64,000 nt of DNA, taken from positions 90,499 to 154,498 of the forward strand of contig CACAND010000001.1 of assembly GCA_902533795.1 (NCBI GenBank), read 5' to 3'. How positions within the stretch are numbered: the first letter of the stretch is position 1; each line of letters starts with the position of its first letter. Positions 2,868-60,717 of the stretch are shown piece after piece. This DNA is from an uncultured Candidatus Actinomarina sp. Lineage in GTDB: Bacteria; Actinomycetota; Acidimicrobiia; Actinomarinales; Actinomarinaceae. The notes beneath the pieces were generated by a model. The model did no database searches and was not told where the DNA came from. It saw nothing but the letters and a program-made list of their open reading frames with translations. The translations under genes and the position numbers were made by a program.

Positions 2868-3387
2868 CTAATTCCTTTCTTGCAAAATCATAGTACAGCA
2901 AAGATACAAATATCGTTAAAAATCCTGTTCCAGCCATTACGGGGATACTTATAAATCCAAAAATATCAACATATTTTAAATCACAGGGAACATCTACAGC
3001 GCAGGTTCCACCGCCTCCCCCACCATTCTGTAAAAAAATGTGATAAATGCTAACAGCTACACCAATTATACTTATATATCCAACTCTAAAAAATGGTCGC
3101 TTCACAAGTGATATGAGTAATGCAATTGCAATTGGATACATTAGGTATCTCTGATACCAACAAAATCTACATGGTATAAAACCGACTACTTCTGAATAGA
3201 CGATGCTTCCAATTGAAGAAAAGATAGCAACAGAAATTGCAAAATTTAGAAACTGGTCAGTAACAATTTTTGTAAAGGTCTTTTTAGAAAAATAAAGATA
3301 AAGTATTGCTGCAGATGATACCCACGCCACAAACGTAAGGAATCCAAAAAAAGTATTTAGTAAAATTGTAAGATTCATTAAATCCAT
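2860..3387 (-). CDS. Disulfide bond formation protein, DsbB/BdbC family
   Basis: PCRFCWYQRYLMYP, second Cys pair CAVDVPC, FGFISIP, 4-5 TM helices. Confidence 0.9.
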   Translation of the reverse strand: MDLMNLTILLNTFFGFLTFVAWVSSAAILYLYFSKKTFTKIVTDQFLNFAISVAIFSSIGSIVYSEVVGFIPCRFCWYQRYLMYPIAIALLISLVKRPFFRVGYISIIGVAVSIYHIFLQNGGGGGGTCAVDVPCDLKYVDIFGFISIPVMAGTGFLTIFVSLLYYDFARKELVE

Positions 3388-3404
3388 ATAGAAATTTTAC
3401 CCCA

Positions 3405-3439
3405 CAAAAAATGATAGGCGACATTCGTCGCCTATCATT
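3405..3439 (-). terminator. Intrinsic terminator of the rhodopsin gene
   Basis: Perfect 13-bp stem aatgataggcgac/gtcgcctatcatt (3410-3439), 4-nt loop, U-tract on the minus strand. Confidence 0.85.
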
Positions 3440-3458
3440 AAAATTTTATTCGAAAAAG

Positions 3459-4121
3459 TTACGAAACTTTTTCTCCTGACTGAACTCGAGCCATTTGTAG
3501 TACTAATACACCAAGACCGACTTTGTTAATTATGTCAGCAATTGTGTATAGAACTTCACGAATAGCATCGAAGTCTCCAACTACAGGTGCAATATATCCT
3601 AACGGATAGATTATCCAACCTACAAGGATTAAGTTCTTAATGTTTTCAAAAGCTACTGCTTGATCACCTTTAAGACCTTCTCCTTCAGCTTGAAGATTTC
3701 TCATTAGCCAGACGTAAGTTGCCATAGCAATTACAAATCCTGTCCAATATTCGTTGCTTCCTGCTGCTGATGTTTCTCCGTAGTATCCTGCACCAATCAT
3801 TACTGTTGCTGCAATTCCCCAGTTACGGACTGCCTCATTATATGCGGCACCCTTTCTTGTAACGGCTAGGACCTCTACGAACATCAAAGGAACAGTTAAG
3901 ACCCAGTCAACGTATCTTAACCCTGTATCATATGATCCACTTTCCCAAGATGCTCCCATCTTCTGATAGTGATACCATGCAATACCACAGACAAGTGCAG
4001 AAATATATACACCACGTCTATGTTCTGGTTTTACCTCTCTTGATGAAGCAAGTAAAAATACTGTTCCTGCAAGCATTCCTACAGTTGCTACCATAAAGAG
4101 ACGATATGTTAGTTCTTCCAT
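3459..4121 (-). CDS. Proton-pumping microbial rhodopsin (marine actinobacterial clade, MACR-like), DTE motif
   Basis: 7 TM helices. Helix C RYVDWVLTVPLMFVE (D, T, E, with Leu at the tuning position), helix B His (WYHY), retinal Lys in DIINKVG. SD AAGGAG upstream. Confidence 0.97.
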   Translation of the reverse strand: MEELTYRLFMVATVGMLAGTVFLLASSREVKPEHRRGVYISALVCGIAWYHYQKMGASWESGSYDTGLRYVDWVLTVPLMFVEVLAVTRKGAAYNEAVRNWGIAATVMIGAGYYGETSAAGSNEYWTGFVIAMATYVWLMRNLQAEGEGLKGDQAVAFENIKNLILVGWIIYPLGYIAPVVGDFDAIREVLYTIADIINKVGLGVLVLQMARVQSGEKVS

Positions 4122-17626: not shown

Positions 17627-18222
17627 CAGACCACATCAATAATTCTTCTTTCAGATGCTTTCTTAATTGCAAATTTAATGTCCTTAAAAAATAAGTCAAT
17701 TATCTCCATGCTGTCCTCAATTATAAACTCAACTTCCTCGGTCTGATCATTATTAAATTTCGACAATACATAATCTGCCGGATCTTGACTTGTAGGCGGT
17801 CTTCCCAAACCAATTTTTAATCTCCAATAATCATTAGTTCCAAGAGCACTGTCTAAAGACTTAATGCCATTATGTCCTCCATCTGAAATACCTTTTTTTA
17901 AACGAAATCTACCAAATGCTAAATCAATATCATCGTGTATTACCAAAAGATTAAAGTCCTTAATGTTTTGGTCTATTAAAAAGGATTTGAGGCCCTGTCC
18001 TGAATTATTCATAGACGTCATTGGAATAACTAATAATATTTCGTGATTCATGATTTCAAACTTTCCAAATTGGAACTGGCCTGAATTATCTAAATCTATT
18101 TTTAAGTTATTTTTTTGACTGTACGAAAAAAGAATATCTGCACCAATGTTATGACGAGTATTGATATATTTTGGTTGAGGATTCCAAAGACCAACTAAAA
18201 TAGTTTTTGGTTTATTCTCCAC
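17626..18222 (-). CDS. pth: Peptidyl-tRNA hydrolase (start moved to GTG 18222)
   Basis: TRHNIG, MNNSG, HDDIDL, GGHNGIKS, DYVL. Follows rplY. Confidence 0.93.
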   Translation of the reverse strand: MENKPKTILVGLWNPQPKYINTRHNIGADILFSYSQKNNLKIDLDNSGQFQFGKFEIMNHEILLVIPMTSMNNSGQGLKSFLIDQNIKDFNLLVIHDDIDLAFGRFRLKKGISDGGHNGIKSLDSALGTNDYWRLKIGLGRPPTSQDPADYVLSKFNNDQTEEVEFIIEDSMEIIDLFFKDIKFAIKKASERRIIDVV

Positions 18223-18904
18223 TTTCCTCTGCTGATTCAGTATCTTCTGAAGCATCTTCACCAGATTCCTCATCTCCTTCACCAGCCTCTTCATCGCCTT
18301 CTTCTCCTTCAAGGTCTTCATCCAAGACCTCTTCCTCTTCAACAACAGCTCTTGGAATAGTTATTGTCACAAGAATAGATTCATCATCTTCAGAAGTAAG
18401 TTCTACACCGTCAGGCAAGTCTATATCTGCTGCAGTAACATTATCACCAACATTTAATTCTGATATGTCAATGTCTATAGATGAGGGAATGCTTGTAGGA
18501 AGTGCAGTAATTGATATTGTGTTGTTAACAGTTTGCACAACCCCACCCTCTTCTTTTACACCTAGAGGCGTGCCAAGAAAGTTAACTTGAACATCAGCTT
18601 CAACAGTTTGTGACAGATCAATTCTTATTAAATCAACATGTACGATTTCATCTTTGAATGCGTGACGTTGAATTTCTCTTGCTAAAGCTGGGATGCTGTC
18701 TTTACCAACATTTACATTTAATATTACGTTAGAGCCAGCTTCTGTCTTTAATGCATTATTAAATTCTCTTGCATTTATCAGTAATGACTCTGGTTCTGAA
18801 CCTAAGCCATACATAACAGCAGGTATGAAGCCTGTTGATCGTAATCTTCTCGATTCAGCTGATCCTGTTTTGTCTCTATTTGTAGCTTCTAATGTAATTT
18901 CCAT
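18212..18904 (-). CDS. rplY: 50S ribosomal protein L25/Ctc with acidic C-terminal tail
   Basis: SRRLRSTGFIPAVMYG, HVDL, GVKEEGG. Confidence 0.93.
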   Translation of the reverse strand: MEITLEATNRDKTGSAESRRLRSTGFIPAVMYGLGSEPESLLINAREFNNALKTEAGSNVILNVNVGKDSIPALAREIQRHAFKDEIVHVDLIRIDLSQTVEADVQVNFLGTPLGVKEEGGVVQTVNNTISITALPTSIPSSIDIDISELNVGDNVTAADIDLPDGVELTSEDDESILVTITIPRAVVEEEEVLDEDLEGEEGDEEAGEGDEESGEDASEDTESAEESGE

Positions 18905-49114: not shown

Positions 49115-49728
49115 TGGTTGCAAGTGACTCAGTAATCGAATTAATTATTCTACAAGTTAGTGTTGCATTCAGCCCTGGATTAATAATTGCCTTGATTGTA
49201 AATGAATCAGTCCAAAAAAGTAGAAGAAATGGACTTGAGGTTGCTACAGGAGCAGCAACAGGAGCAATCTTTATAACAATAATTACAGCGAGCGTCGTTA
49301 CTTTTATCTTTAATTTAATCCCACAAATTTTAACAATGATCTACATTGTTGGAATTATCTATATTGTGTACAAAGGAATTGTCACTATAAAAGCTGAAAT
49401 AAAAATAGATGATACAAATATTAATGCAGGATCCTTTAACGCAGGAATGCAACTTAATTTAATAAACCCTAAGATGTGGGTATTTTATCTTTCTGTCTTG
49501 CCCATATTCGCTACAGAAAATGAGAATGTTTTTGTGCAACTTATTATTCTTGGAGCTATAACGATATTTGTTAATCTGATTGCCGATATTAGTTATGCAT
49601 ATATGAGTAGTTATTTTTTTGAAGATTCTTCAGTAAAAACAAAAAAAGTAATCAATGCAGTAAGCGGTTTTTGTTTAATTCTGATAGGTATTTATTTATT
49701 TTTTAGTAGATTTCTTGGATTCCTTTGA
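49114..49728 (+). CDS. LysE/RhtB family translocator
   Basis: SPG motif, NLINPK, about 6 TM helices. Confidence 0.85.
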
Positions 49729-50640
49729 ATCATCATCTTTAAATAATTCAGCAACTGCACCAATACTTCCAAGAGTTGCAGAAAGATCAGCAGGTAAGAA
49801 AATTTTAGTAGCTTTGCCGTTTGCAACTTTTTCGAGAGATTCAAGATATTTAATTGCGATCAAGTCATTTGTTGGATCACCCTTGTGAATAGCGTCAAAA
49901 ACTTTTTGTATAGCTTCTGATTCACCATCAGCAATGGCAATTTTTTCATATTTTTGAGCATCGGCTACTGCTTTGAGTGCTTCTGCTTCACCCTCAGCAC
50001 TTAAAATTTGGGACTGTCTTTCGCCTTCCGCAGTCAAGATAGCTGCTCTCTTTTCACCCTCAGCTTCTGTAACAGCTGCTCTTCGATCTCTTTCAGCTTT
50101 CATGACTTTATTCATTGCATCCTGAACGTCTTGTGGTGGGTCAATTCTTTGAATCTCAACACGAACTACTCTTGTACCCCATTTATCAGTTGCTTCATCA
50201 AGAATGAGTTTTAAAGATGTATTAATTGTTTCTCGAGAAGTAAGTGCTGCATCAAGCTCTAGGTCACCAATAACATTTCTCAAATTGGTTTGTGCAAGTT
50301 TTGTTGCAGCAGTTATAAAGTCACCTACGTTATAAACTAATTTTTTTGGATCAGTCGGTTCATAATAAATGACTGCATCAACTGTAATTGTAACGTTGTC
50401 TTTAGTGATTACTTCTTGTGGTGGAACATCTATAACTTGTTCACGCATGTCTACAACAATTAATCTCTCTATACCAGGAATCACTATATTTAAACCTGAA
50501 GTTGCTTCACGATTGTATTTACCAAATCTTTCAATTAAGCCTTTTTCAAATGGCCTTAAAATTCTAAATATTCTAAAAGCTACAAATACTAAAAGACCAA
50601 ATAGTATTACGCTTCTTACGAGTGAAAAGATAAATTCCAT
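49696..50640 (-). CDS. SPFH/band 7 (stomatin-like) membrane protein
   Basis: [28 protein letters not shown] repeats. Confidence 0.93.
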
Positions 50641-50680
50641 AGTATTAGTTTATTATTGATAAAGTTATACGTTGATTTGT

Positions 50681-51049
50681 TTAACTATTTGTTTCTTCTG
50701 ACTCTTTTTCTTCTTGTTCATACCTACTTAAAGCAAGCATAAACATGATGAATAGAATCAATGAACCTGCAAAATATGTAAGAGGTATGATTCTGATCTC
50801 AAGTGCATTTAAACCGTCGATTGATGCAGGAGCAGGGCCTCTTGGTGCATAAAGAAGAAAAAGGAAAGAATTAATAACTAGCCAACCAAAAGTAGCAGCA
50901 CCAACAACTAAAAATCCAAGCCTTCTACCAAGATTTGTTGCATTCAAGACAAAAGTTGAGCCAAAAAAAGAAAGTATGAAAAATATAAATAGAACTATTC
51001 CGGTAAAAGTAAGGTTGGACGATAAAAGTGTCCTCATTATTTCACGCAT
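50681..51049 (-). CDS. Small 3-TM protein, last gene of the Rieske/cytochrome b operon
   Basis: Hydrophobic. Overlaps the stop of the diheme cytochrome c gene. Confidence 0.7.
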   Translation of the reverse strand: MREIMRTLLSSNLTFTGIVLFIFFILSFFGSTFVLNATNLGRRLGFLVVGAATFGWLVINSFLFLLYAPRGPAPASIDGLNALEIRIIPLTYFAGSLILFIMFMLALSRYEQEEKESEETNS

Positions 51050-52466
51050 CAGGTGTCATTCCTCTCAAATAATCTATTACTAATTCTATATCTGACTGTG
51101 GAAGCACTGCACCAAAACCAGGCATTTTTCCACCACCTACTCCATTCACTCCATACCCTTTACCGTTTACGGAACCATTAATGATAAAGTCAATAAAATC
51201 ATCACGTTCTTTAAATTGAATGTTTACTCTTCCTCCCCTTAAAGCAGGCCCCAAGCCACCTGAGCCAATTTGTTTAGTGTAAGCAGCACCAGCAGAATAA
51301 CCTGCAGTATGACATCTTGCACAATATGCATTAAATATACCTACGGCTCTAATTGCTTTATCGTAATCTCCGTCGAAAGTTGAATCAGCTATATCTTGGA
51401 AATCGATAAGCCACAGCTTTTGTTGGTATGCATTTTCTAAAAATGCTAAACCTGTTTCAGCTTCATCCATAAACTTGTCATATCCATCAGTAAGTATTCC
51501 AAGATTAATAACTTTTGTTTCAAGTTCAGACAAGAAACCTCTAACTATAGAAGCATCTTTCCTTCCAGGAATCGATTCCTCCTCGTCTGGATTAAGATTT
51601 AATACTGGAGTTCCTAACATTTCAGTTATCGTTTCACTGTATGCTGAGAGATCAGTTTCAACACTGTCATACAATCCATCTTCATCAGTATCAATACCGC
51701 TTTGTCTAGAAATTAACGCTGAGACGACCTCAACTGCTTCAATTGCGATTGGTAATCTAATTGGTGCCATTTCTATATCGTTTATTAACTCATTTTGTTT
51801 GGCTATTTCACTCTCAACTTGTAAATCGGAATTTTCTATTCTTAATAATGATGAATTTATATTTCCCTCAATTTCAAGCAATTCTTCATTTTGAGGAATT
51901 TGAAAGGAGTGTAAATACTCAATCAAATCACTTAATTGGCCGTCGTTCATAGGTCCACCACCTTTAAGACCCCAAGCTGGCATTGGTGAATTTGCTCTTC
52001 CATAGATAAGCCAATATAAAACTTCATCATCATCGTATCTGTAAAATACATCATTAATAGCAGGGGCTACCCAAGTAACACTTACCCCACTTCTTTTTTC
52101 AACATACGATGCAGCACCACCACTTCCATCTGCACCATGGCAGTTACCACACCCAAATTCTTCATATAAATGTTGCCCTCTTTCTACAGAAACATCATCA
52201 AATTCCTCTACAAAGCTTTCTTGTCTAGCTGGTTCACCTAAATAATATAAAGGAATCATAATTGTTAAAAGAGAAGCTAAAACAACAGCAACTGACAAAA
52301 TCTTATCTAGCTGAGTTGTCTCAAGCTGGTCATCAGGTAAATATTTTTGAAGATTTCTTGGTACTTTTTTAATCTTTCCTGCACCTCGAAATCCGACAGC
52401 AGAAAAGTATGCAATTGCGCCGATAACAGCTAAAGCAATAAGTGTTATAAAAAGTGAACTATTCAT
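51042..52466 (-). CDS. Membrane-anchored diheme cytochrome c
   Basis: CGNCH with SPMPAW, CARCH with KMPGF, two N-terminal TM helices. Confidence 0.9.
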   Translation of the reverse strand: MNSSLFITLIALAVIGAIAYFSAVGFRGAGKIKKVPRNLQKYLPDDQLETTQLDKILSVAVVLASLLTIMIPLYYLGEPARQESFVEEFDDVSVERGQHLYEEFGCGNCHGADGSGGAASYVEKRSGVSVTWVAPAINDVFYRYDDDEVLYWLIYGRANSPMPAWGLKGGGPMNDGQLSDLIEYLHSFQIPQNEELLEIEGNINSSLLRIENSDLQVESEIAKQNELINDIEMAPIRLPIAIEAVEVVSALISRQSGIDTDEDGLYDSVETDLSAYSETITEMLGTPVLNLNPDEEESIPGRKDASIVRGFLSELETKVINLGILTDGYDKFMDEAETGLAFLENAYQQKLWLIDFQDIADSTFDGDYDKAIRAVGIFNAYCARCHTAGYSAGAAYTKQIGSGGLGPALRGGRVNIQFKERDDFIDFIINGSVNGKGYGVNGVGGGKMPGFGAVLPQSDIELVIDYLRGMTPDA

Positions 52467-52468
52467 TA

Positions 52469-53347
52469 TTATTCCTCAGGTGCGGCAATAGTAATACATG
52501 AAATACCTTGGGGATATTTAACTGACATTCCAGCAGCACGTGGAGATTCTATGATAGAACCCGTATCAATAATAAATTTTCCAGATGAGTTTACATTCAC
52601 TATGAATCTATCAAGATTACGAGGTGCTGGTCCAGCGTAGTATTCACCAACCATATTATATTTTGATCCGTGACAAGGACATTCAAACCCTTGAGAGGTA
52701 TTACACCAAGGGACTCTGCAACCAAGGTGTACACACCTTTGATAAACAGCAACAAGTCCATCAGCAACTGTTCCACTATCAGAAAATTGTGAGTTTCCTG
52801 ATTGTTCGAATGGTAATACATAAGCTCTAGCAGCTGGGATGAAAGCAGGAATCACAGATCCATCAGATTGAAAAATTTGGTCTTTTAAATCTTGAACTCT
52901 TCCTGCGTCAATCTTAGAACCAAAACCTCCAGAGACTTTAGGATAGAAAAATCCCAGCCAGGAAATTAATTGAATTCCGGCGAAAGCGCCGAAAGTAATT
53001 CCTAATGCTTTTCCCAGGAATTGTCTACGAGTCATTCCAGCTTCTTCTTCTGATATTTCTTCGTAAATAATTTCTTCTTTTACTTTTATTGATCCATCTG
53101 TTTGAATATCATCTTTTTCTTCAATATCTTCAGATAAATTTTCTTCTTCATTTTCAGGTTCATCAGGAGCTAAAAAGTTTGTTTGTGATTTATCTACTTT
53201 TAGTGCTCTCTTATCTAAATTTTTCTTCCAATTCAGCCTTTTATTTACAGCTTTAGGCGTTCTACCAGTGACTACTGCAATGATTCCAATGACGCCAAAT
53301 AAACCGATAAAAGCAATTGCAATAAATGAAAGTTGTACCAGGCTCAT
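52469..53347 (-). CDS. Rieske iron-sulfur subunit of a menaquinol:cytochrome c reductase
   Basis: CVHLGC and CPCHGSKY boxes, internal Tat motif TRRQFL, extra N-terminal TM. Confidence 0.95.
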   Translation of the reverse strand: MSLVQLSFIAIAFIGLFGVIGIIAVVTGRTPKAVNKRLNWKKNLDKRALKVDKSQTNFLAPDEPENEEENLSEDIEEKDDIQTDGSIKVKEEIIYEEISEEEAGMTRRQFLGKALGITFGAFAGIQLISWLGFFYPKVSGGFGSKIDAGRVQDLKDQIFQSDGSVIPAFIPAARAYVLPFEQSGNSQFSDSGTVADGLVAVYQRCVHLGCRVPWCNTSQGFECPCHGSKYNMVGEYYAGPAPRNLDRFIVNVNSSGKFIIDTGSIIESPRAAGMSVKYPQGISCITIAAPEE

Positions 53348-54099
53348 TCGAAATGGACCCAGTCAAGTAAGTCATCAAACCAAACACCATCAATCCAAGG
53401 ATATGTCCAGTTCCAACCTGGGCCTCTAAATAATATACCAATTAAACTCAATGTTCCCGCTCCTGCCAGAAAAAATGTCCAAAGCATAATTGCATATTTT
53501 CTTTTTGACGGTTTATTATCCTTATTTCTATCTATATATGGAATAGCCATAAATGCTGCCACACCAATAATTAAAGGAATCATAACTCCAGCAATCTGTG
53601 GATCCCAGTATGAAAGTAATTCTTGTAAACCAAGGAAATACCATGGTGCTTTTGCAGGGTTTGGAGTAATGTTTGGATTTGCTTCTTCAAGTAATGGGGC
53701 CTGCAAAATTGCGCTAATAAAAATAAGAAAAGCTGTCATAGCCATCAAAGATATAAATTCTGGAAGCATTAAATGTGGCCAGGTGTTTACTTTATCTACT
53801 GGCTCAGAAGTAGGTTTTTGTATCGGTTTGGCTTTTACAACTGTCAATAGTCTCTGTGTAACTCTTGTTTCTGGAGCAAAATCAACTTCAGCTGGTATAT
53901 CAGCTTTTACAGCTGCTGCTGGTGCTGGTGCTTCTTTGACTTCAATTGGTTTTACATCTATAACTTCTGGTTCTTTTGAAATAGTTGTAGGCTCTGCCTC
54001 ACCCTTCATTTCAGCTAATGCTTGCTCTACAGATATACCTAAAGCTTTTGCTCTTGCCTCAGCTGTTTTTATTAATAAATGTTCTGGAATATCAACCAT
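53344..54099 (-). CDS. Cytochrome b C-terminal subunit (subunit IV/PetD-like) with an N-terminal extension (start moved to ATG 54099)
   Basis: TWPHL, APLLEEANP, TPNPAKAPWYF (PEWY-equivalent), PYIDR. Confidence 0.88.
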   Translation of the reverse strand: MVDIPEHLLIKTAEARAKALGISVEQALAEMKGEAEPTTISKEPEVIDVKPIEVKEAPAPAAAVKADIPAEVDFAPETRVTQRLLTVVKAKPIQKPTSEPVDKVNTWPHLMLPEFISLMAMTAFLIFISAILQAPLLEEANPNITPNPAKAPWYFLGLQELLSYWDPQIAGVMIPLIIGVAAFMAIPYIDRNKDNKPSKRKYAIMLWTFFLAGAGTLSLIGILFRGPGWNWTYPWIDGVWFDDLLDWVHFE

Positions 54100-54110
54100 A
54101 TATATAAAAA

Positions 54111-54890
54111 CTAGAGGGGACCAGAGATCCCTCCATCCTTTCTGACTCTCCAAAAATGGATCGCCATAAATATAACGATTATGAACGGGAGAAATAAAAC
54201 ATGTAAAACATAGAAACGGAGCAAAGTAGCTTCTGTTGCTTCTAATCCTGCAAATAAGGCAAATTTTACCTGAGCGCCAATTACAGGTGTGTAGCTAGCC
54301 ATGTTTCCTCCAACGGTAACCGCCCAAATAGCTAACTGGTCCCATGGAAGAAGATACCCAGTAAAAGATAAAAGCAAGGTTAATAAAAGCAAGATAACCC
54401 CAATTACCCAGTTAAACTCTCTTGGTGCTTTATATGCTCCATGATAAAACACTCTTGACATGTGAAGGAAGACTACGATGACCATTATATGTGCAGCCCA
54501 CCTGTGCATATTTCGTACTAATGAGCCAAAAGCTATTGAAGTTTGTAGAGATTGAATATCAACATAAGCCATTTCAGTTGGTCTAAAATAAAACATTAAC
54601 CATATTCCTGTAATTGTAAGAACAATAAATGTAAAAAAGCTTAAACCTCCAAGACATAATGTGTAAGACAATCTCACAGCATGTCTTTTAACCTTTACTG
54701 GGTGAAGATGGTACAAAACATTGTTCATAACAACATATGATCTGTTTCTTGGGCTGTCGGAATATCCTTTTCTGAATGGTGATCCTGGACGAAAGATACT
54801 TCCCCATAATGAGCTTTCCTTCAGTGAGTCCCCTAGACCTGCACTTATATCTTTTACACGATCTCTAAACTTTATTTTTTCATTCTTCAT
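54111..54890 (-). CDS. Cytochrome b6-like N-terminal subunit (PetB-like)
   Basis: CLGG, RNMHRWAAH...LHMSRV, PREFNW, GYLLPWDQ, LH-x14-H, GISGPL C-terminus. Confidence 0.95.
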   Translation of the reverse strand: MKNEKIKFRDRVKDISAGLGDSLKESSLWGSIFRPGSPFRKGYSDSPRNRSYVVMNNVLYHLHPVKVKRHAVRLSYTLCLGGLSFFTFIVLTITGIWLMFYFRPTEMAYVDIQSLQTSIAFGSLVRNMHRWAAHIMVIVVFLHMSRVFYHGAYKAPREFNWVIGVILLLLTLLLSFTGYLLPWDQLAIWAVTVGGNMASYTPVIGAQVKFALFAGLEATEATLLRFYVLHVLFLPFIIVIFMAIHFWRVRKDGGISGPL

Positions 54891-55340
54891 TTAAAGTCTT
54901 CCATATATATATCCATGTCTATCATTTCTTTCTCCAGAGTCTTCATCCCATGGAGCTTCATAGACACCGTTATTAATTGCTGCATCTGCCAACGATCCTG
55001 CAAATTTACCCAAAGAAATTACTCCTGTTGGACATCTATCAACACATAATGCACATCTAGTACATGCATCTTCGTCAACAACAAAAAATCCTGATTCATT
55101 TTCTTCCATACTTGGTGCTTCAACATTGATAGAGTCTTCAATAGCATCTGTTGACAAGTAGTGAATACATTTCCATGGACATATATCAACACAACCTTCG
55201 CATAAAATACATTCTGCTTCATCTATGTGTAGAAATTGTTTCGGTCTTACTCTTGATGAAATCTTTTCAGCATCAACCATGGCAAGGTTGTATTGTTTTT
55301 CAAATTCAGGCATCTCAATAAGTACTTCTGATTTAGCCAT
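54891..55340 (-). CDS. 2x[4Fe-4S] ferredoxin
   Basis: CILCEGCVDICP and CTRCALCVDRCP. Confidence 0.9.
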   Translation of the reverse strand: MAKSEVLIEMPEFEKQYNLAMVDAEKISSRVRPKQFLHIDEAECILCEGCVDICPWKCIHYLSTDAIEDSINVEAPSMEENESGFFVVDEDACTRCALCVDRCPTGVISLGKFAGSLADAAINNGVYEAPWDEDSGERNDRHGYIYGRL

Positions 55341-55926
55341 CAGCACCTACCTTTACTACTTCTTTTCCATAATCAGAAATTCTTGTTTTACCTCTCTCTT
55401 TTGCTTCATTGATATCCTGAATTAAATATCCAACAACAAAAGCGGTTACTAATGCACCTGTAGAAATTCCAAGTTGAATAATATCTTTAAGTGCTCCAAG
55501 ACTGAGACCAATTTCATTACCAAGAAAAAGAATAGGCGGAAAGTTTATAAATTCTCTTTGATTAGTCCATTCAAGAGGTCCCTGAGAAAGGTTAAGCCAT
55601 TCAGATGGTAAAACTCCAAAAATTAGTGCGAATTGGATCCAGCTTAAGAAAGCAAGATATGTTGCTCTTGCCCATGTCATCTCTGTATCTTCCCAAGCTA
55701 ACATTGCCATTCCAATCAAAAGAAGTTGCCCAGCTCCAAATGCTATTAGTTGGCCAATAGTTTGCATTAACCATCCTCGAGGCATCCAATTAAAGTAATC
55801 AATTACTTCCCCCTCTGGAAAACCAGCAAAATGTGCAATAATGACCCCGATAGTGACACCACCGATTCCAGCAAATATTAAAGCTACGCCGATTTTGTAT
55901 CGATTAGTAAATATAAAATTTAACAA
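55333..55926 (-). CDS. Uncharacterised 4-TM protein, first gene of the cytochrome b operon
   Basis: Hydrophobic segments. Overlaps the ferredoxin start. Confidence 0.75.
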   Translation of the reverse strand: MLNFIFTNRYKIGVALIFAGIGGVTIGVIIAHFAGFPEGEVIDYFNWMPRGWLMQTIGQLIAFGAGQLLLIGMAMLAWEDTEMTWARATYLAFLSWIQFALIFGVLPSEWLNLSQGPLEWTNQREFINFPPILFLGNEIGLSLGALKDIIQLGISTGALVTAFVVGYLIQDINEAKERGKTRISDYGKEVVKVGADG

Positions 55927-56095
55927 GTTTCCCTCTACACGTCATTAACTCAAAACTTTCAATACCTATTGTATCAAGAATTGGGTACATAATATAAATT
56001 TTATAACGGTACTTTTTTAAGAAATTACATATTTTATTGACGTATTTTTTACAGATTAATAGTAAAGTCAAATTGAGAACTTACTATTTAAACAA

Positions 56096-57499
56096 ATGAA
56101 AATAAAAATTTTTCCAAAAAATGAACAAGAATTTTCAAAATTTTTTATTGTTGTTATGCCCTTTTTATTATTACTTTTTGGAGGTATATCACTATTAAAA
56201 GAAGCTTATTTTCTTTTTGTGAATATTCTTCCCCAAAATATTGTATTTAATTACGGTTTTCTAGATATATTAAATAATCATATAACTTATAGCCTTTTGC
56301 TATCATTCTTAATCGTATTTTTAACTTCATATCTTTTACCAAAAACTCTTGGCAGGAGGTTGGTTATATTTCCAATTTTCTTCCTAACCTCACTAGGTGT
56401 AATAGGTTTAGAGTCTTTAGATTTATTATTAGGGTTTTTGTTTCCCAATAACTTTTTTTCTTTTGGTAATACAAGTTATACAATGCTCTTCAAAATTTTA
56501 ATTTTGTTTGCTTTTGTAAGTCTTTTATCAATAAATATTCTTGCCAAAAAAGAGGCTTCCATGTTTATAAGTGCGCAATATTTATATGGAGCAGCTTTAT
56601 TTTATGCTCTTTCATTAGTTATTTATCGTGGAAATTTTTCTGTATTTAGTGATAATTTTTTTATTAACTCTATGTATGTATCTACACATATATATGTTGG
56701 ATATTCTTTTGTATTTTTAGCATTGCTTCATTTTATGACTACAAAGGGAATCAACGGAACATTATATAGTAAAACTTTAGGATCAATTAGTTTTTGGGGA
56801 TATCTATTTTTATTGCCATGGACTAACTTTAAATTTTATTTTGGTTCAGTTTTGCCTAATTGGATTGAAAACATTTCACTTTATTTATCATTAAGCTTGG
56901 CTCTACCACTGCTTGCAGTCACAGTTAATTTTTTTAGAACTGTAACAACTAGAGATGAAGAAAATAAAATAATTTATGGCCTTGTTAGTTTTTCGTTTGG
57001 AATTTTCCTAGTAACTAATCTCTTTCAAATTGTTTCATCATTATCAAACATTATCCCCATACTTAGTCTTACAAGTTTTGAAATTGCAATAAGATATGGC
57101 TACGTTTTTAGTTCTATATTGATATCTATTGCTTTTATTTATTATCTCATTCCAAAGATCTTTGGTAGAGAAGTAAAATATACAAGACTTGAGTCTCTTA
57201 CTGCCTATACTTTGAAAATTGTTGTATCTGGCACATTATTCTCTAATGCTTTAATAGGTATAATTTCTGGGTATTCGTGGAATGCTGGTGCAAATGCAGG
57301 AAATCCAACAATATATGGTGAAGGTTTTGCGTTGTTATGGTCGCTAATAAGTACTCCTTTATCAGTAAATTTGTTTTTATCAGTTTTGCTCCTTTTACCA
57401 TTTTTTCTATTCTTTATATCTGTGATAAAAGCCATAGTAAATGGAGAAATCACAGAGGCTGAAACAATAGAGCTTACAGAAGAAGAGCTTCCAGTATGA
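56096..57499 (+). CDS. Degenerate cbb3-type oxidase subunit I (CcoN)-like membrane protein lacking the heme/CuB histidines
   Basis: About 12 TM helices. Retains LYSKTLGSISFW, LPNW, VNFFRT, YYLIPKIFGRE. Followed by a CcoO-like gene. Confidence 0.65.
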   Translation: MKIKIFPKNEQEFSKFFIVVMPFLLLLFGGISLLKEAYFLFVNILPQNIVFNYGFLDILNNHITYSLLLSFLIVFLTSYLLPKTLGRRLVIFPIFFLTSLGVIGLESLDLLLGFLFPNNFFSFGNTSYTMLFKILILFAFVSLLSINILAKKEASMFISAQYLYGAALFYALSLVIYRGNFSVFSDNFFINSMYVSTHIYVGYSFVFLALLHFMTTKGINGTLYSKTLGSISFWGYLFLLPWTNFKFYFGSVLPNWIENISLYLSLSLALPLLAVTVNFFRTVTTRDEENKIIYGLVSFSFGIFLVTNLFQIVSSLSNIIPILSLTSFEIAIRYGYVFSSILISIAFIYYLIPKIFGREVKYTRLESLTAYTLKIVVSGTLFSNALIGIISGYSWNAGANAGNPTIYGEGFALLWSLISTPLSVNLFLSVLLLLPFFLFFISVIKAIVNGEITEAETIELTEEELPV

Positions 57500-57716
57500 G
57501 TGAACTCTTAAGTAAAGTCGCAGAAATATTAAATGCTCCAGAATCGTTGGTACAACGATCTGCAGAGGCTAGAGCGGAAGCATCAGGTAAAAGTGTTGAT
57601 GAGGTTTTACAATCTTGGGCAGGTGGTGAAAGTGTAGCTGCTGTCGAAAAGAGTGTGGAAGAACCAGCACCTGTGGAAGAACCAGCACCTGTGGAAGAAC
57701 CAGCACCTGTGGAAGA
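57496..57716 (+). repeat. 221-bp perfect direct repeat, copy 1
   Basis: Identical by base comparison to 58289-58509. Starts exactly at the ATG. Confidence 0.95.
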
Positions 57717-58296
57717 ACTCACAACTAAAGATGAATCTTCGATTGATGTTCAAGAAGATGATGATGAAGAAATTGTTCAACTTTTAATAGAAGAAGAACT
57801 TATAGAAGCTAAAAAAGAGAGTTCATTTGCAGTCTTAATGGGAGTAATTGGAGTTGTAGTATTCACATATTTATTTGCTTTTTCAATTCCAAAACAACAA
57901 AGCGAAGATCTCGTATTGGAATCTTTAAATAATTCCGTACGCGTAAGTGAAGAAATTCTTGAAGGTGCAACAGTTTATAATCAACTTAATTGTCAATCAT
58001 GTCATACACAGAATGTGAGGGTGCTAATACCTGATTCACAAAACGGAAAAGTTTTAAAGAATAGGTTTGCAAATAAAAATTTAATTCTTAATACTGGATT
58101 ACTAAGGTTAGCTCCAGATTTATCTACTCTTGCATCCAGAGAGCCAACAAATGATGGGGACTGGCTTAAAAAATATTTGACCGATCCATCATCAGTAAAA
58201 GAAGAGATTCCGCATCCATCAATAAATTTCTTAAATGAACAAGATTTAGATTATTTGATAACTTATTTATTATCTTTAGGAAGTACAAATGAGTGA
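57496..58296 (+). CDS. CcoO-like monoheme cytochrome c with an N-terminal repeat module
   Basis: GATVY...CQSCHTQNVR, RLAPDLS, WLKKYLTDP...P, DYLITYLLSLG match the CcoO pattern. Confidence 0.75.
   Translation: MSELLSKVAEILNAPESLVQRSAEARAEASGKSVDEVLQSWAGGESVAAVEKSVEEPAPVEEPAPVEEPAPVEELTTKDESSIDVQEDDDEEIVQLLIEEELIEAKKESSFAVLMGVIGVVVFTYLFAFSIPKQQSEDLVLESLNNSVRVSEEILEGATVYNQLNCQSCHTQNVRVLIPDSQNGKVLKNRFANKNLILNTGLLRLAPDLSTLASREPTNDGDWLKKYLTDPSSVKEEIPHPSINFLNEQDLDYLITYLLSLGSTNE
57655..57716 (+). repeat. 18-bp tandem repeat gtggaagaaccagcacct, 3 units plus a partial unit (VEEPAP)
   Basis: Direct reading. Confidence 0.95.
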
Positions 58297-58509
58297 ACTC
58301 TTAAGTAAAGTCGCAGAAATATTAAATGCTCCAGAATCGTTGGTACAACGATCTGCAGAGGCTAGAGCGGAAGCATCAGGTAAAAGTGTTGATGAGGTTT
58401 TACAATCTTGGGCAGGTGGTGAAAGTGTAGCTGCTGTCGAAAAGAGTGTGGAAGAACCAGCACCTGTGGAAGAACCAGCACCTGTGGAAGAACCAGCACC
58501 TGTGGAAGA
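58289..58509 (+). repeat. 221-bp perfect direct repeat, copy 2 (tandem array at 58448-58509)
   Basis: Identical to 57496-57716, offset 793 bp. Confidence 0.95.
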
Positions 58510-59242
58510 GATTGAAAAAAAAGAAGATAAAAATGAAATTGTTTCGGAAGAAAAAGAAAAACCACAGACATTATCTTCTTCAAGAAATACCAAAAAAATA
58601 ACTCAAAAAATAGCTTTTGCTAATAAAACATTAAATATCAAAGTTAATGCAGAAACTACTTTGCCTAGATGGTTAAATGTAAGTTTTGTCCTTATTCCTT
58701 TATTTATAGTAATTGGAATCATAAACACATCATCGACTCAAGAATGTGGTGAAAACGGCATTCTTGATATAGATAGAAAATCTCAATTGACAATTAATTG
58801 TGATGGTTCTGCTTTTGAAGGCAAGGGTGTTGGCTCAGCAAGTTCTATAAATTATATTGCTCTTGGACAACAAATATATTCTGGAGCAGCTGCTTGTGCA
58901 GGTTGCCACGGTGTGAATGGAGGTGGTGGTGTTGGACCAGCATTTACTGGGGGTGAGCTCTACACAACATTCCCAACTTGTAGTGATCATGCACTTTGGA
59001 TTGAGCTAGGATCAGCAGGATGGCAAGCTGATGTTGGGCCAGCTTATGGTGCCGAAGATAAAGTTTCTATTGGAGGAATGCCAGGTTTTGCTGGAAAACT
59101 TACCGAAGATGAACTTTATGCAGTAGTTGTATTTGAAAGGGTTGTCTTCGGTGGTGGGGATACAAATGAAGTATTAGAAGATTGTGGTCTTCTAGAAACT
59201 GAAGAAGAAGTAACTGCTGAAGCAGTAGAAACATCAAGTTAA
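58289..59242 (+). CDS. Membrane-anchored monoheme cytochrome c with an N-terminal repeat module
   Basis: CAGCH, GGVGPAF, GGMPGF (Met ligand), one TM. Confidence 0.88.
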   Translation: MSELLSKVAEILNAPESLVQRSAEARAEASGKSVDEVLQSWAGGESVAAVEKSVEEPAPVEEPAPVEEPAPVEEIEKKEDKNEIVSEEKEKPQTLSSSRNTKKITQKIAFANKTLNIKVNAETTLPRWLNVSFVLIPLFIVIGIINTSSTQECGENGILDIDRKSQLTINCDGSAFEGKGVGSASSINYIALGQQIYSGAAACAGCHGVNGGGGVGPAFTGGELYTTFPTCSDHALWIELGSAGWQADVGPAYGAEDKVSIGGMPGFAGKLTEDELYAVVVFERVVFGGGDTNEVLEDCGLLETEEEVTAEAVETSS

Positions 59243-59371
59243 ATAAACAAATAAATTCAAGTTGATTGTTTAAATAATCAAACTACTATTTTTTTTATGT
59301 TGCCAGCAATATATATTCATGTATTTTTGATCGCATTTAGTATTGTTCTTTTCTATGTAATTTTATAAAAT

Positions 59372-59812
59372 ATGGCCAAAAAAAAGAAAGAGAAAAGAGC
59401 CGTAGGTTGGAAAGAACACGTTGCTCTTCCTGATTTAAAGATTAAAAGTGTAATAGCAAAAATTGATACTGGTGCAAATGTTGCAACTATAGATGCTGCA
59501 AACATAAAATTTATTACTAAGAATGATATTAAGTACGTAAAGTTCACTGTTAAAAAAAGAAACAATACAATTAGAAAAACCTCTGCACCTCTTGCAGGAT
59601 TTAAAAGAATAAAAAGCTCTAATGGTGATGTTGAAAAAAGACCGTACATAAAAACTGATATCCTGATGGATGGTATTACAAAAAATATTGAACTTACTCT
59701 TACCGATAGAGGACCTATGGATTACACGATGTTGATTGGAAGAAAAGCCTTAGGGAGAAGATGGGTAGTTAATCCATCCATAGGTTTTTTGACAAAGCCT
59801 TCAGGAGAATAA
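59372..59812 (+). CDS. RimK-associated retropepsin-like protein
   Basis: [26 protein letters not shown]...MLIGR. Confidence 0.88.
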
Positions 59813-59814
59813 AA

Positions 59815-60717
59815 ATGAAGATTGGAATTTTATCACAAGATATTAGATTGTATTCTACAAAACGTCTTTACGAAACTGCTCTTGAAAGAGGTCATGATAC
59901 TGAAGTAGTAAGTTATTTAAGGTGTTACATGAATATTGCTAAGGCAAAACCTAGAATATTTTCTGCTGGTAGAGAACTAAGCTTTGATTCCGTGATACCA
60001 AGAATTGCTGCGACTTGGACGTTTTATGGTGCTGCTGTTGTTCGTCAATTTGAATTAATGGGGTCAGTATCGGCAAATTCGTCGGCTGGAATAAGTAGAT
60101 CTAGAGATAAATTAAGAGCTCTACAGCTTATTGGAAATACAGGAGTGGAAATGCCGGTAACTGGATATGTTCATTTTTCAAGAGATGTCGAATCTGTTTT
60201 AAAAAGTGTTGGAGAGCCCCCTTTTGTTATTAAATTACTCGAAGGAACTCAAGGAAGAGGTGTCGTGCTAACAGAAACAATGGATGCAGCTATAAGTGTT
60301 ATTGAAACAATGAAGAAGATAGATGCAAATATTTTAGTTCAAGAATTTATAAGTGAAGCAAATGGTGAAGACATAAGAGCAATTGTCGTTGGAGATAAAG
60401 TGGTTGCATCAATGAAAAGAATCGCAAAACCTGGTGAGTTCCGATCAAATGTTCACTTAGGAGGAAGAGCTGAAAATTACAATATTTCAAAAGAAGAGGA
60501 AGAAAGTGCTGTCAAGGCTGCACAAATTTTAAAACTTGATGTCGCCGGTGTAGATCTAGTTCAATCTGACAGAGGCCCTTTAGTGTTAGAAGTAAATTCT
60601 TCTCCTGGATTAGAGGGTATTGAATCTGCATCAGATATTGATGTTGCAAAAGAGATCATATCTTTTCTAGAAAAAAAAGTGGAAAATACGGATAAGTCAA
60701 AACCTATCGATATTTAA
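59815..60717 (+). CDS. rimK: RimK-family ATP-grasp alpha-L-glutamate ligase
   Basis: [43 protein letters not shown]. Confidence 0.93.

Follow-up and report, generated by a model that had tools for sequence, protein, structure and literature searches.

What keeps the respiratory supercomplexes of actinobacteria assembled, and by what means soluble dehydrogenases connect with them, is described as an active question in one study (PMC13456599); actinobacteria do without small soluble cytochromes c and rely instead on physical bc-oxidase supercomplexes, according to another (PMC8361435). This question is raised anew by a 64,000-nucleotide stretch, here called the window, of the genome of an uncultured Candidatus Actinomarina sp. 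(assembly GCA_902533795.1, contig CACAND010000001.1, positions 90,499 to 154,498 of the forward strand). The host is among the most abundant and most streamlined marine actinobacteria, and its genome (0.98 Mb, 33% GC, 13 contigs, 90% complete) carries at positions 50681-59242 of the window two divergently transcribed operons, one for a bc complex and one for a haem-copper oxidase. Three of their products, namely subunit IV of the bc complex, a CcoO-like protein and a membrane-anchored cytochrome c, begin with the same short module. What is this module, and what is it doing on subunits of different complexes? Our results reveal a portable tag, defined by its sequence, that is carried by the bc complex, by two systems on the oxidase side and by an enzyme of the citric-acid cycle and that, as judged by profile searches, is an undescribed and unnamed domain family. 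We tentatively propose, with a confidence that falls a little short of even, that it is a tethered cytoplasmic docking or oligomerisation domain, which would co-localise respiratory complexes and, in some Actinomarina, the 2-oxoglutarate:ferredoxin oxidoreductase KorAB.

The shared module and its carriers

Residues D3-G33 of subunit IV (54093-54001) align without gaps to N13-G43 of both the CcoO-like protein (57496-58296) and the cytochrome c (58289-59242), and a recount of the letters returned the 14 identical positions out of 31 that a first-pass annotation of this DNA had reported. The candidate starts of subunit IV are ATG 54099 (MVDIPEH...) and TTG 54153; the ATG is most likely the true one, because relatives begin at the same Met. 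The similarity remains significant after composition correction (BLASTP with compositional adjustment, subunit IV against the CcoO-like protein, E 4e-5), and genome-wide profiles recover it in both directions. Class-restricted profiles were run on the 17,248 six-frame open reading frames of the entire genome. With the profile of the oxidase copies only, the best non-self matches were KorA (E 2.7e-6) and subunit IV (E 3.2e-3), followed by E 1.2; with that of subunit IV and KorA they were the two oxidase proteins (E 2e-5) and a 372-residue membrane protein (E 2.6e-3), followed by E 2.4. The two plus-strand copies form a 239-nt direct DNA repeat (57496-57734 and 58289-58527) that is 97% identical, 100% over the first 210 nt, and begins exactly at both start codons. 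An assembly artefact was considered as the source of this repeat and rejected, as the paired arrangement is found in 37 locus pairs from many assemblies.

The whole-genome profile search added two further carriers, for a total of five, so that the module is spread over more redox proteins than the first-pass annotation had listed; all five are energy-metabolism proteins. The first addition, of 372 residues, bears its module at the N-terminus, and at least six membrane helices are predicted in it; its gene comes immediately behind those for the aa3 oxidase and one resembling CtaG (neighbours named by reading their translations). No family was found for it, nor any informative name among the best 120 of its 483 relatives. 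The second is KorA, the alpha subunit of the 2-oxoacid:ferredoxin oxidoreductase (TIGR03710, E 2.4e-162), which bears the module in a long acidic C-terminal tail. The full-length KorA of a relative (P0161, 896 residues) has a module at either end. The N-terminal one is missing from our assembly because of an inverted junction at the start of contig C12 (L001), where positions 1-246 encode KorA residues 94-173 on the opposite strand and the KorA frame runs from 237; this junction is most likely an assembly or amplification chimera. Thirteen of the 120 listed module proteins are KorA, with 838-902 residues, and in the samples searched the KorA modules are restricted to the genus and to part of its genomes.

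The signature of the module is G-[MIV]-P-E-x-L-[VL]-x-R-S-A-x-A-[RK]-A-x-A-x-G-x-[ST]-V-[DE]-[DE]-V-L-x-x-[WM]-x-G, with a logo near-invariant at Pro, Leu, Arg-Ser-Ala, Ala, Arg/Lys, Ala and Gly. Position 18 is Arg in 93% and position 23 Arg or Lys in 99%, and the mean net charge is +1.7 in the second helix, -2.6 in the last helix and -1.5 in the module core. A single-sequence AlphaFold2 model of CcoO-like residues 1-75 places helices at 3-12, 16-30 and 34-42, with a predicted local distance difference test score (pLDDT) of about 90 over residues 1-40 and of 53-65 in the linker; on this prediction the three helices form a compact unit, and the module, about 35-47 residues long, would be a helical domain that folds by itself.

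The module instances collected, from 261 proteins, divide cleanly by carrier into two subtypes, whose counts come from related sequences and are descriptive only. In class A there are two helices, mostly with no leading helix, and the last helix has Met, Leu or Ile at its subtype position; class B has Trp there and begins with an additional leading helix. The Trp form occurs in all modules of the cytochrome c (48/48), the CcoO-like protein (29/29) and the 372-residue protein (27/27). Met or Leu is found in 42 of the 47 subunit IV modules, Met or Ile in 26/26 of those of KorA, and the Met/Leu/Ile form in 7 of 10 from the small bc subunit. The carriers of class A are subunit IV, the small last bc subunit in other families and, in some Actinomarina, both ends of KorA. 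The classes align in hhalign with a probability of 99.8%, over a span that includes tails and second copies, so that the E-value is inflated, and on sequence grounds they are clearly homologous. On a helical wheel, the small and apolar residues that are conserved in helix 2 occupy one arc of about 200 degrees, which is compatible with a central helix packed against two neighbours. Class A is without the first helix, and therefore part of this arc has no intramolecular partner in it; we infer that a helix supplied in trans by a partner would be needed there.

In all three carriers of the window the module is followed by a Glu/Pro/Ala/Val-rich linker and then by the first predicted membrane helix (Table 1), in agreement with the order first described. 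The extension is additional to the parent families, the PetD model TIGR01156 beginning at residue 106 and the CcoO models at about residue 150. The known topology of PetD and CcoO, together with the soluble nature of KorA, would place the modules on the cytoplasmic side, so that the earlier picture of a discrete, portable unit on a flexible cytoplasmic linker holds, its side by analogy. Perfect 18-nt tandem repeats encoding VEEPAP lie in both oxidase linkers (57654-57718, 3.6 copies; 58447-58509, 3.5-3.6 copies), and the linker of the 372-residue carrier holds a five-fold VDEAPVET repeat; these repeats suggest that linker length changes by slippage.

The module is more conserved than the linkers and is under purifying selection. 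Among 35 CcoO-like orthologues, identity is 0.94 in the block RSAEARAEAS, 0.84 in the haem motif and 0.32-0.51 in the linker; for subunit IV it is 0.76-0.88 in the module versus 0.48-0.54 in the linker, with only 5 sequences. The ratio of nonsynonymous to synonymous substitution rates (dN/dS) has a median of 0.11 when 719 pairs drawn from 45 distinct module sequences are compared, and the module is retained from 33% GC to about 70% GC. An RNA element behind the shared 5' ends was also considered and rejected on account of this dN/dS and of the conservation of the protein from 33 to 70% GC, there being no Rfam family in 50000-60000. One alternative is that the module has no specific partner and that the folded cap and its charged linker are a spacer, a solubility aid or an entropic brush, conserved for folding only. 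As this would have it, the linkers are long, repetitive and charged and differ in length, and packing can explain the conserved residues of helix 2. However, a brush has no need of a conserved folded unit, positions 18 and 23 are polar yet nearly invariant, the two subtypes are kept apart by carrier across families, and modules have been gained at both ends of KorA, for which reasons we consider this explanation improbable.

DNA identity between the two oxidase modules is at least 94% in 27 of the 37 locus pairs, yet species differ: the adjacent oxidase modules are in concerted evolution. In the relative G034 (L128) the genes for a cytochrome c (3183-4082, minus strand) and for subunit IV (17818-18660, plus strand) lie about 14 kb apart and share nearly the same first 25 residues, which form a degenerate module that includes a short insertion; homogenisation of the tag between carriers therefore extends beyond neighbouring genes. 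The module at the N-terminus of KorA is very close to that of subunit IV, though no closer within a genome than between genomes.

Distribution and comparison with known folds

A family profile built from four distinct copies and searched against 1.84 billion proteins matched 457 cluster representatives at E <=0.001, 221 of these at E <=1e-10. At least 4269 clusters at 90% identity match the module profile, none with an informative name. Neither Pfam (E up to 10 for the module) nor NCBIfam has a model for it, and no description of it was found in the published literature, supplementary files aside. The carriers were classified from the 48 representatives of at least 200 residues out of 150 listed: 6 belong to PF00032, 13 to cytochrome c families and 2 to FixO, and 27 match no family with a single stretch, among them the small-bc-subunit homologues P0001 and P0011. 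P0186 (Aconitase_C) and P0044 (zinc ribbon) were left out, as they look like chimeric gene calls on short contigs.

One module is present in 91 of the 150 listed representatives and 2 to 7 in the other 59, which therefore are multivalent. Copy number and position are relevant to a further alternative, in which the module is an assembly or quality-control handle that a chaperone, insertase adaptor or protease would grasp on unassembled redox subunits, with no role in mature complexes. The extreme N-terminal position in many carriers and the fact that every carrier belongs to a cofactor-bearing complex would suit such a handle; arrays of up to 7 copies, the internal and C-terminal positions in KorA and subtypes that track complexes are hard to explain by it, and we give it little credence.

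The module is conserved in orthologues, in 24/24 other genomes sampled from the genus and also in families of 60-70% GC. Within a sample of the class (101 genomes, at least 90% complete) 40 match at E <=1e-5, with some families positive throughout (13/13, 5/5, 3/3) and others negative throughout (0/16, 0/6). Only Acidimicrobiia account for the 7 matches in a phylum sample of 301 genomes, with none in the 277 genomes outside that class; in the samples searched the module is confined to part of the Acidimicrobiia. Two 'negative' relatives, G027 and G034, have a subunit IV that begins with a degenerate half-module, and in G034 a membrane cytochrome c starts with the same half-module; in G038, a weak match, a related but fuller N-terminal module is present on a cytochrome c. 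Because of these forms, the sharing of an N-terminal unit by subunit IV and a cytochrome c probably predates the full module.

Two known folds had been likened to the module by the first-pass annotation. One is the peripheral-subunit-binding domain (PSBD; Pfam PF02817, E3_binding) of 2-oxoacid dehydrogenase E2 chains, which docks other enzymes. Here the likeness of architecture stands, both being helical units of about 35-45 residues between extended Ala/Pro/Glu-rich linkers, and the flexible Ala/Pro-rich linkers around the modules bear on whether the two work alike, not on membership. Homology does not stand: E3_binding finds one site in the genome, in E2 (C1:57109-57210), and 0 of the 5 module sites, hhalign of the modules against 9 same-clade PSBDs gives a probability of 2.3% over 15 columns, and the helix spacing is different. 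PSBDs sit on E2 cores, whereas the module is attached to KorA and to respiratory subunits in the membrane, and as many as 7 copies can stand in one array.

The other fold is the ribbon-helix-helix (RHH). RHH domains dimerise obligately, a property that would go well with a role in oligomerisation, and PutA is a respiratory enzyme that carries an RHH N-terminal domain. The pattern itself was borne out: as in RHH_1 and the PutA N-terminal domain, a Pro is followed by helix, G-x-[ST] and helix in the same register, the turn having Gly in 88% of instances and Ser/Thr two positions on in 60%, with predicted helices on either side. Against 13 RHH domains hhalign gives a probability of 5% (E 0.0079, 28 columns, with the G-x-S turn in the RHH register), and 1.4% for the control of PSBD versus RHH. 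Membership was not borne out, as the module is acidic and, by prediction, without a beta-ribbon: no N-terminal beta-strand is predicted, since residues 3-12 of class B are predicted to be helical where RHH has its strand and class A has only 4 residues before the Pro. Pfam PF01402 (RHH_1) has 0 matches in this genome (G000), and its sole match in the relative G030 is off the module sites.

These comparisons also weigh on the possibility that the module is a nucleic-acid-binding fold, RHH-, helix-turn-helix- or ANTAR-like, that tethers DNA or RNA to the membrane or regulates expression, for which the RHH domain of PutA is a precedent. The alignment in RHH register, 28 columns long, speaks for it, and so do the Pfam helix-turn-helix families, which reach summed scores on tandem arrays, and the best natural fold matches, which are ANTAR proteins (VIA: NasR Z 4.2, rmsd (root-mean-square deviation) 2.5, 48 aligned; EutV 3.5; Rv1626 3.4; AmiR 3.0), with the PutA RHH domain at Z 2.5. 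But 0 single helix-turn-helix stretches pass, all Z lie below the meaningful level of 5, the RHH evidence against membership applies here as well, and the would-be reading helix, the module core and the linkers are all acidic, the linkers strongly so; we regard a nucleic-acid-binding role as highly improbable. The top Foldseek matches in the PDB are designed toroids, and a PDB sequence-profile search found only designed repeat proteins and a local dehydrogenase stretch.

Docking and its alternatives

We favour a docking or oligomerisation domain because of its multivalency, its portability, its carrier-specific subtypes and the strong selection on it in a streamlined genome; about 250 extra residues would seldom be kept unused in such genomes. 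The proposal of a docking tag in the first-pass annotation thus fits the conservation, selection and portability found here, and has to be separated from membership of the PSBD or RHH families. The modules may pair with each other, the class A hairpins burying their apolar face against a partner; alternatively, a single site may be bound by all of them. In both cases the tethers would link the bc complex, the terminal oxidases and KorAB to one another in a common membrane neighbourhood, in which class A would mark the b6-type bc complex and the KorA ends and class B the oxidase side, and linkers of 45 to 90 residues would, by estimate, reach well beyond their own complex. A far more specific scheme seems quite unlikely to be correct in full: class A-class B pairing would tie the bc complex to two oxidases and, in Actinomarina, the class A modules at both KorA ends would keep KorAB stationed on the bc complex, so that electrons from 2-oxoglutarate would pass via the ferredoxin-like subunit to the bc complex and then to oxygen without a freely diffusing ferredoxin.

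Several points weigh against docking. The predicted structure rests on one single-sequence AlphaFold2 model, and no fold match is significant (best Foldseek E against the PDB 1.9; no VIA Z >=5). The counts of carriers and subtypes are drawn from related sequences. Intramolecular packing alone could explain the helix 2 arc of class B, which therefore does not demonstrate a conserved exposed patch. Plain gene conversion between neighbouring repeats can suffice for the homogenisation of the oxidase modules, with which a need for equal binding specificity is also compatible. Lastly, the likeness of the KorA and subunit IV modules is 0.66 within versus 0.67 between genomes (6 same-genome comparisons, 5 genomes).

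The presence of class A on bc subunits and KorA alike could also mean that the modules share a partner that is not a module, be it the ferredoxin-like subunit, another cytoplasm-facing part of the bc complex or a hub protein, in which case the class A modules of KorA would bring KorAB to the bc complex. The bc operon encodes a ferredoxin-like subunit with two clusters, and ferredoxin is reduced by KorAB. No 2-oxoglutarate dehydrogenase E1 was found above cut-off in this 90%-complete genome, and therefore KorAB probably carries the flux of the citric-acid cycle; related Acidimicrobiia are reported to be without 2-oxoglutarate dehydrogenase and to use KOR instead (PMC12008989). On the other side, the operon of ferredoxin, b6, subunit IV, Rieske and dihaem cytochrome c is also present in G027 and G034, beside a mere degenerate half-module, so the full module is not a requirement for the ferredoxin subunit, and the class B carriers, which are oxidase subunits, have no obvious need of ferredoxin. 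We rate a common partner of this kind as rather unlikely.

If docking is the function, which known systems resemble it? Dockerin-cohesin pairs and the docking domains of polyketide synthases are small, portable, linker-borne units of multi-enzyme assemblies, sometimes in arrays; they differ in being extracellular or soluble, in having known partner domains and in their fold. The N-terminus of chloroplast PetD faces the stroma, i.e. the n side. This end of the b6f subunit is a functional, regulatory site, with STT7 phosphorylation at Thr4, according to one report (PMC13287000), and would be a parallel for a functional site at this end of subunit IV; the PetD end is a short peptide in one complex, whereas the module is a folded unit, by prediction, on a 45-residue linker and common to several complexes. 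The adapter AscF/AscG is proposed to couple Mqo to the mycobacterial CIII-CIV supercomplex (PMC13456599), and is thereby an actinobacterial accessory part tying a citric-acid-cycle enzyme to a supercomplex, as KorA with a bc-type module would be; it is a dedicated subunit with a TPM domain, unrelated in sequence, and the module is a portable tag on many proteins. By analogy, physical bc-oxidase contact and the Mqo adapter can be taken as precedents of kind, not of family. As a docking unit the module would be a small tethered interaction domain in an unexplored setting and a testable handle on supercomplex and metabolon assembly, and it would be new in kind if the metabolon reading is true. 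Definition of the family would serve the annotation of the clusters that are now unnamed, and the module may be of use as a small natural scaffold tag.

The two operons and their surroundings

The features of the locus are collected in Table 1. The ten-gene layout of both operons recurs in G030, a relative of 60% GC, where a gene for a similar-sized predicted membrane protein occupies the position of the 197-residue protein.

Table 1. Features of the two operons and of their module carriers, in window coordinates
Feature	Coordinates	Strand	Evidence or remark
bc operon		-	Order: 197-aa membrane protein, ferredoxin-like, cytochrome b6, subunit IV, Rieske, dihaem cytochrome c, small three-helix membrane protein
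197-aa membrane protein, family not known	55333..55926	-	First gene of bc operon
Ferredoxin-like subunit	54891..55346	-	Two [4Fe-4S] motifs; Fer4 families; NuoI-like, E 2.2e-14
Cytochrome b6-type subunit	54111..54890	-	PF00033, E 3.5e-44
Subunit IV, whole gene	53344-54099	-	PF00032, E 6.2e-7
Subunit IV, class A module	54001..54099	-	Residues 1-33 (MVDIPEH...EMKG); two-helix form without leading helix
Subunit IV, linker	53860..54000	-	Residues 34-80; Ala/Pro/Glu/Val-rich (composition)
Subunit IV, core	53344..53859	-	Conserved pre-membrane segment; predicted membrane helices 114-132, 169-187, 206-224
Rieske subunit	52469..53347	-	Pfam and NCBIfam family searches
Dihaem cytochrome c subunit	51042..52466	-	Pfam
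Small three-helix membrane subunit	50681..51049	-	Last gene of bc operon; module-free here
Oxidase operon		+	Order: CcoN-like haem-copper oxidase subunit I, monohaem CcoO-like protein, membrane-anchored cytochrome c
Divergent CcoN-like oxidase subunit I	56096..57499	+	COX1 PF00115, E 4.9e-11; first gene of the operon with two class B modules
CcoO-like protein, class B module	57496..57627	+	Residues 1-44; three predicted helices
CcoO-like protein, acidic linker	57628..57825	+	Block identity 0.32-0.65 across 35 orthologues
CcoO-like protein, membrane anchor and haem c domain	57826..58296	+	Predicted membrane helix 111-129
Cytochrome c, class B module	58289..58420	+	Residues 1-44; identical to the copy at 57496
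Cytochrome c, linker	58421..58672	+	Carries the 18-nt repeat of the CcoO-like linker
Cytochrome c, membrane anchor and cytochrome c domain	58673..59242	+	Predicted membrane helix 129-147; PF00034, PF13442

Subunit IV is a PetD-type carrier, with 30 bits to PF00032 (cut-off 20.7) and three membrane helices after the extension. The cytochrome b6 also narrowly attains the NCBIfam model ExtP of a selenite/tellurite reduction operon (293.1 bits, cut-off 290), and subunit IV matches ExtQ with a score under the cut-off. In the Rieske protein the usual anchor is preceded by an additional membrane helix at the N-terminus and by an acidic loop about 70 residues long. Homologues of the small bc subunit in high-GC relatives (P0001, P0011) bear 3 to 7 class A modules, and have an LG[KR]RL[GS]F region in common with it.

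In the oxidase operon, the CcoN-like subunit matches TIGR00780 (ccoN) with E 4.7e-8, far under the model cut-off. This subunit is fast-evolving, with identities of 52-57% within the genus (many species) and of 22-26% between families, and the window query matches it in 27 of the 101 class genomes, every one of them module-positive. The CcoO-like protein scores 28.6 bits against FixO PF02433 (cut-off 29.6), 27 bits against Cytochrom_C and far under the cut-offs of the NCBIfam ccoO models; it is named 'CcoO-like' because these FixO and ccoO cut-offs are not attained. Two relatives (L014, L056) have three consecutive module-bearing genes, versus two in the window. Contigs from three RNA libraries cover module-coding parts, a coverage that cannot prove transcription and from which nothing is drawn.

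A gene for an SPFH/Band-7 (stomatin-like) protein (49696-50640, minus strand; Band_7, E 2.8e-43) lies 40 nt downstream of the end of the bc operon on the same strand; in G030 its position is taken by an opposite-strand gene for what its first residues suggest is a Rex-type repressor. Directly after the oxidase operon there are two genes on the plus strand (59372-60717) for products of 146 and 300 residues, the latter of which we take, by the look of its sequence, to be a RimK-type ATP-grasp ligase.

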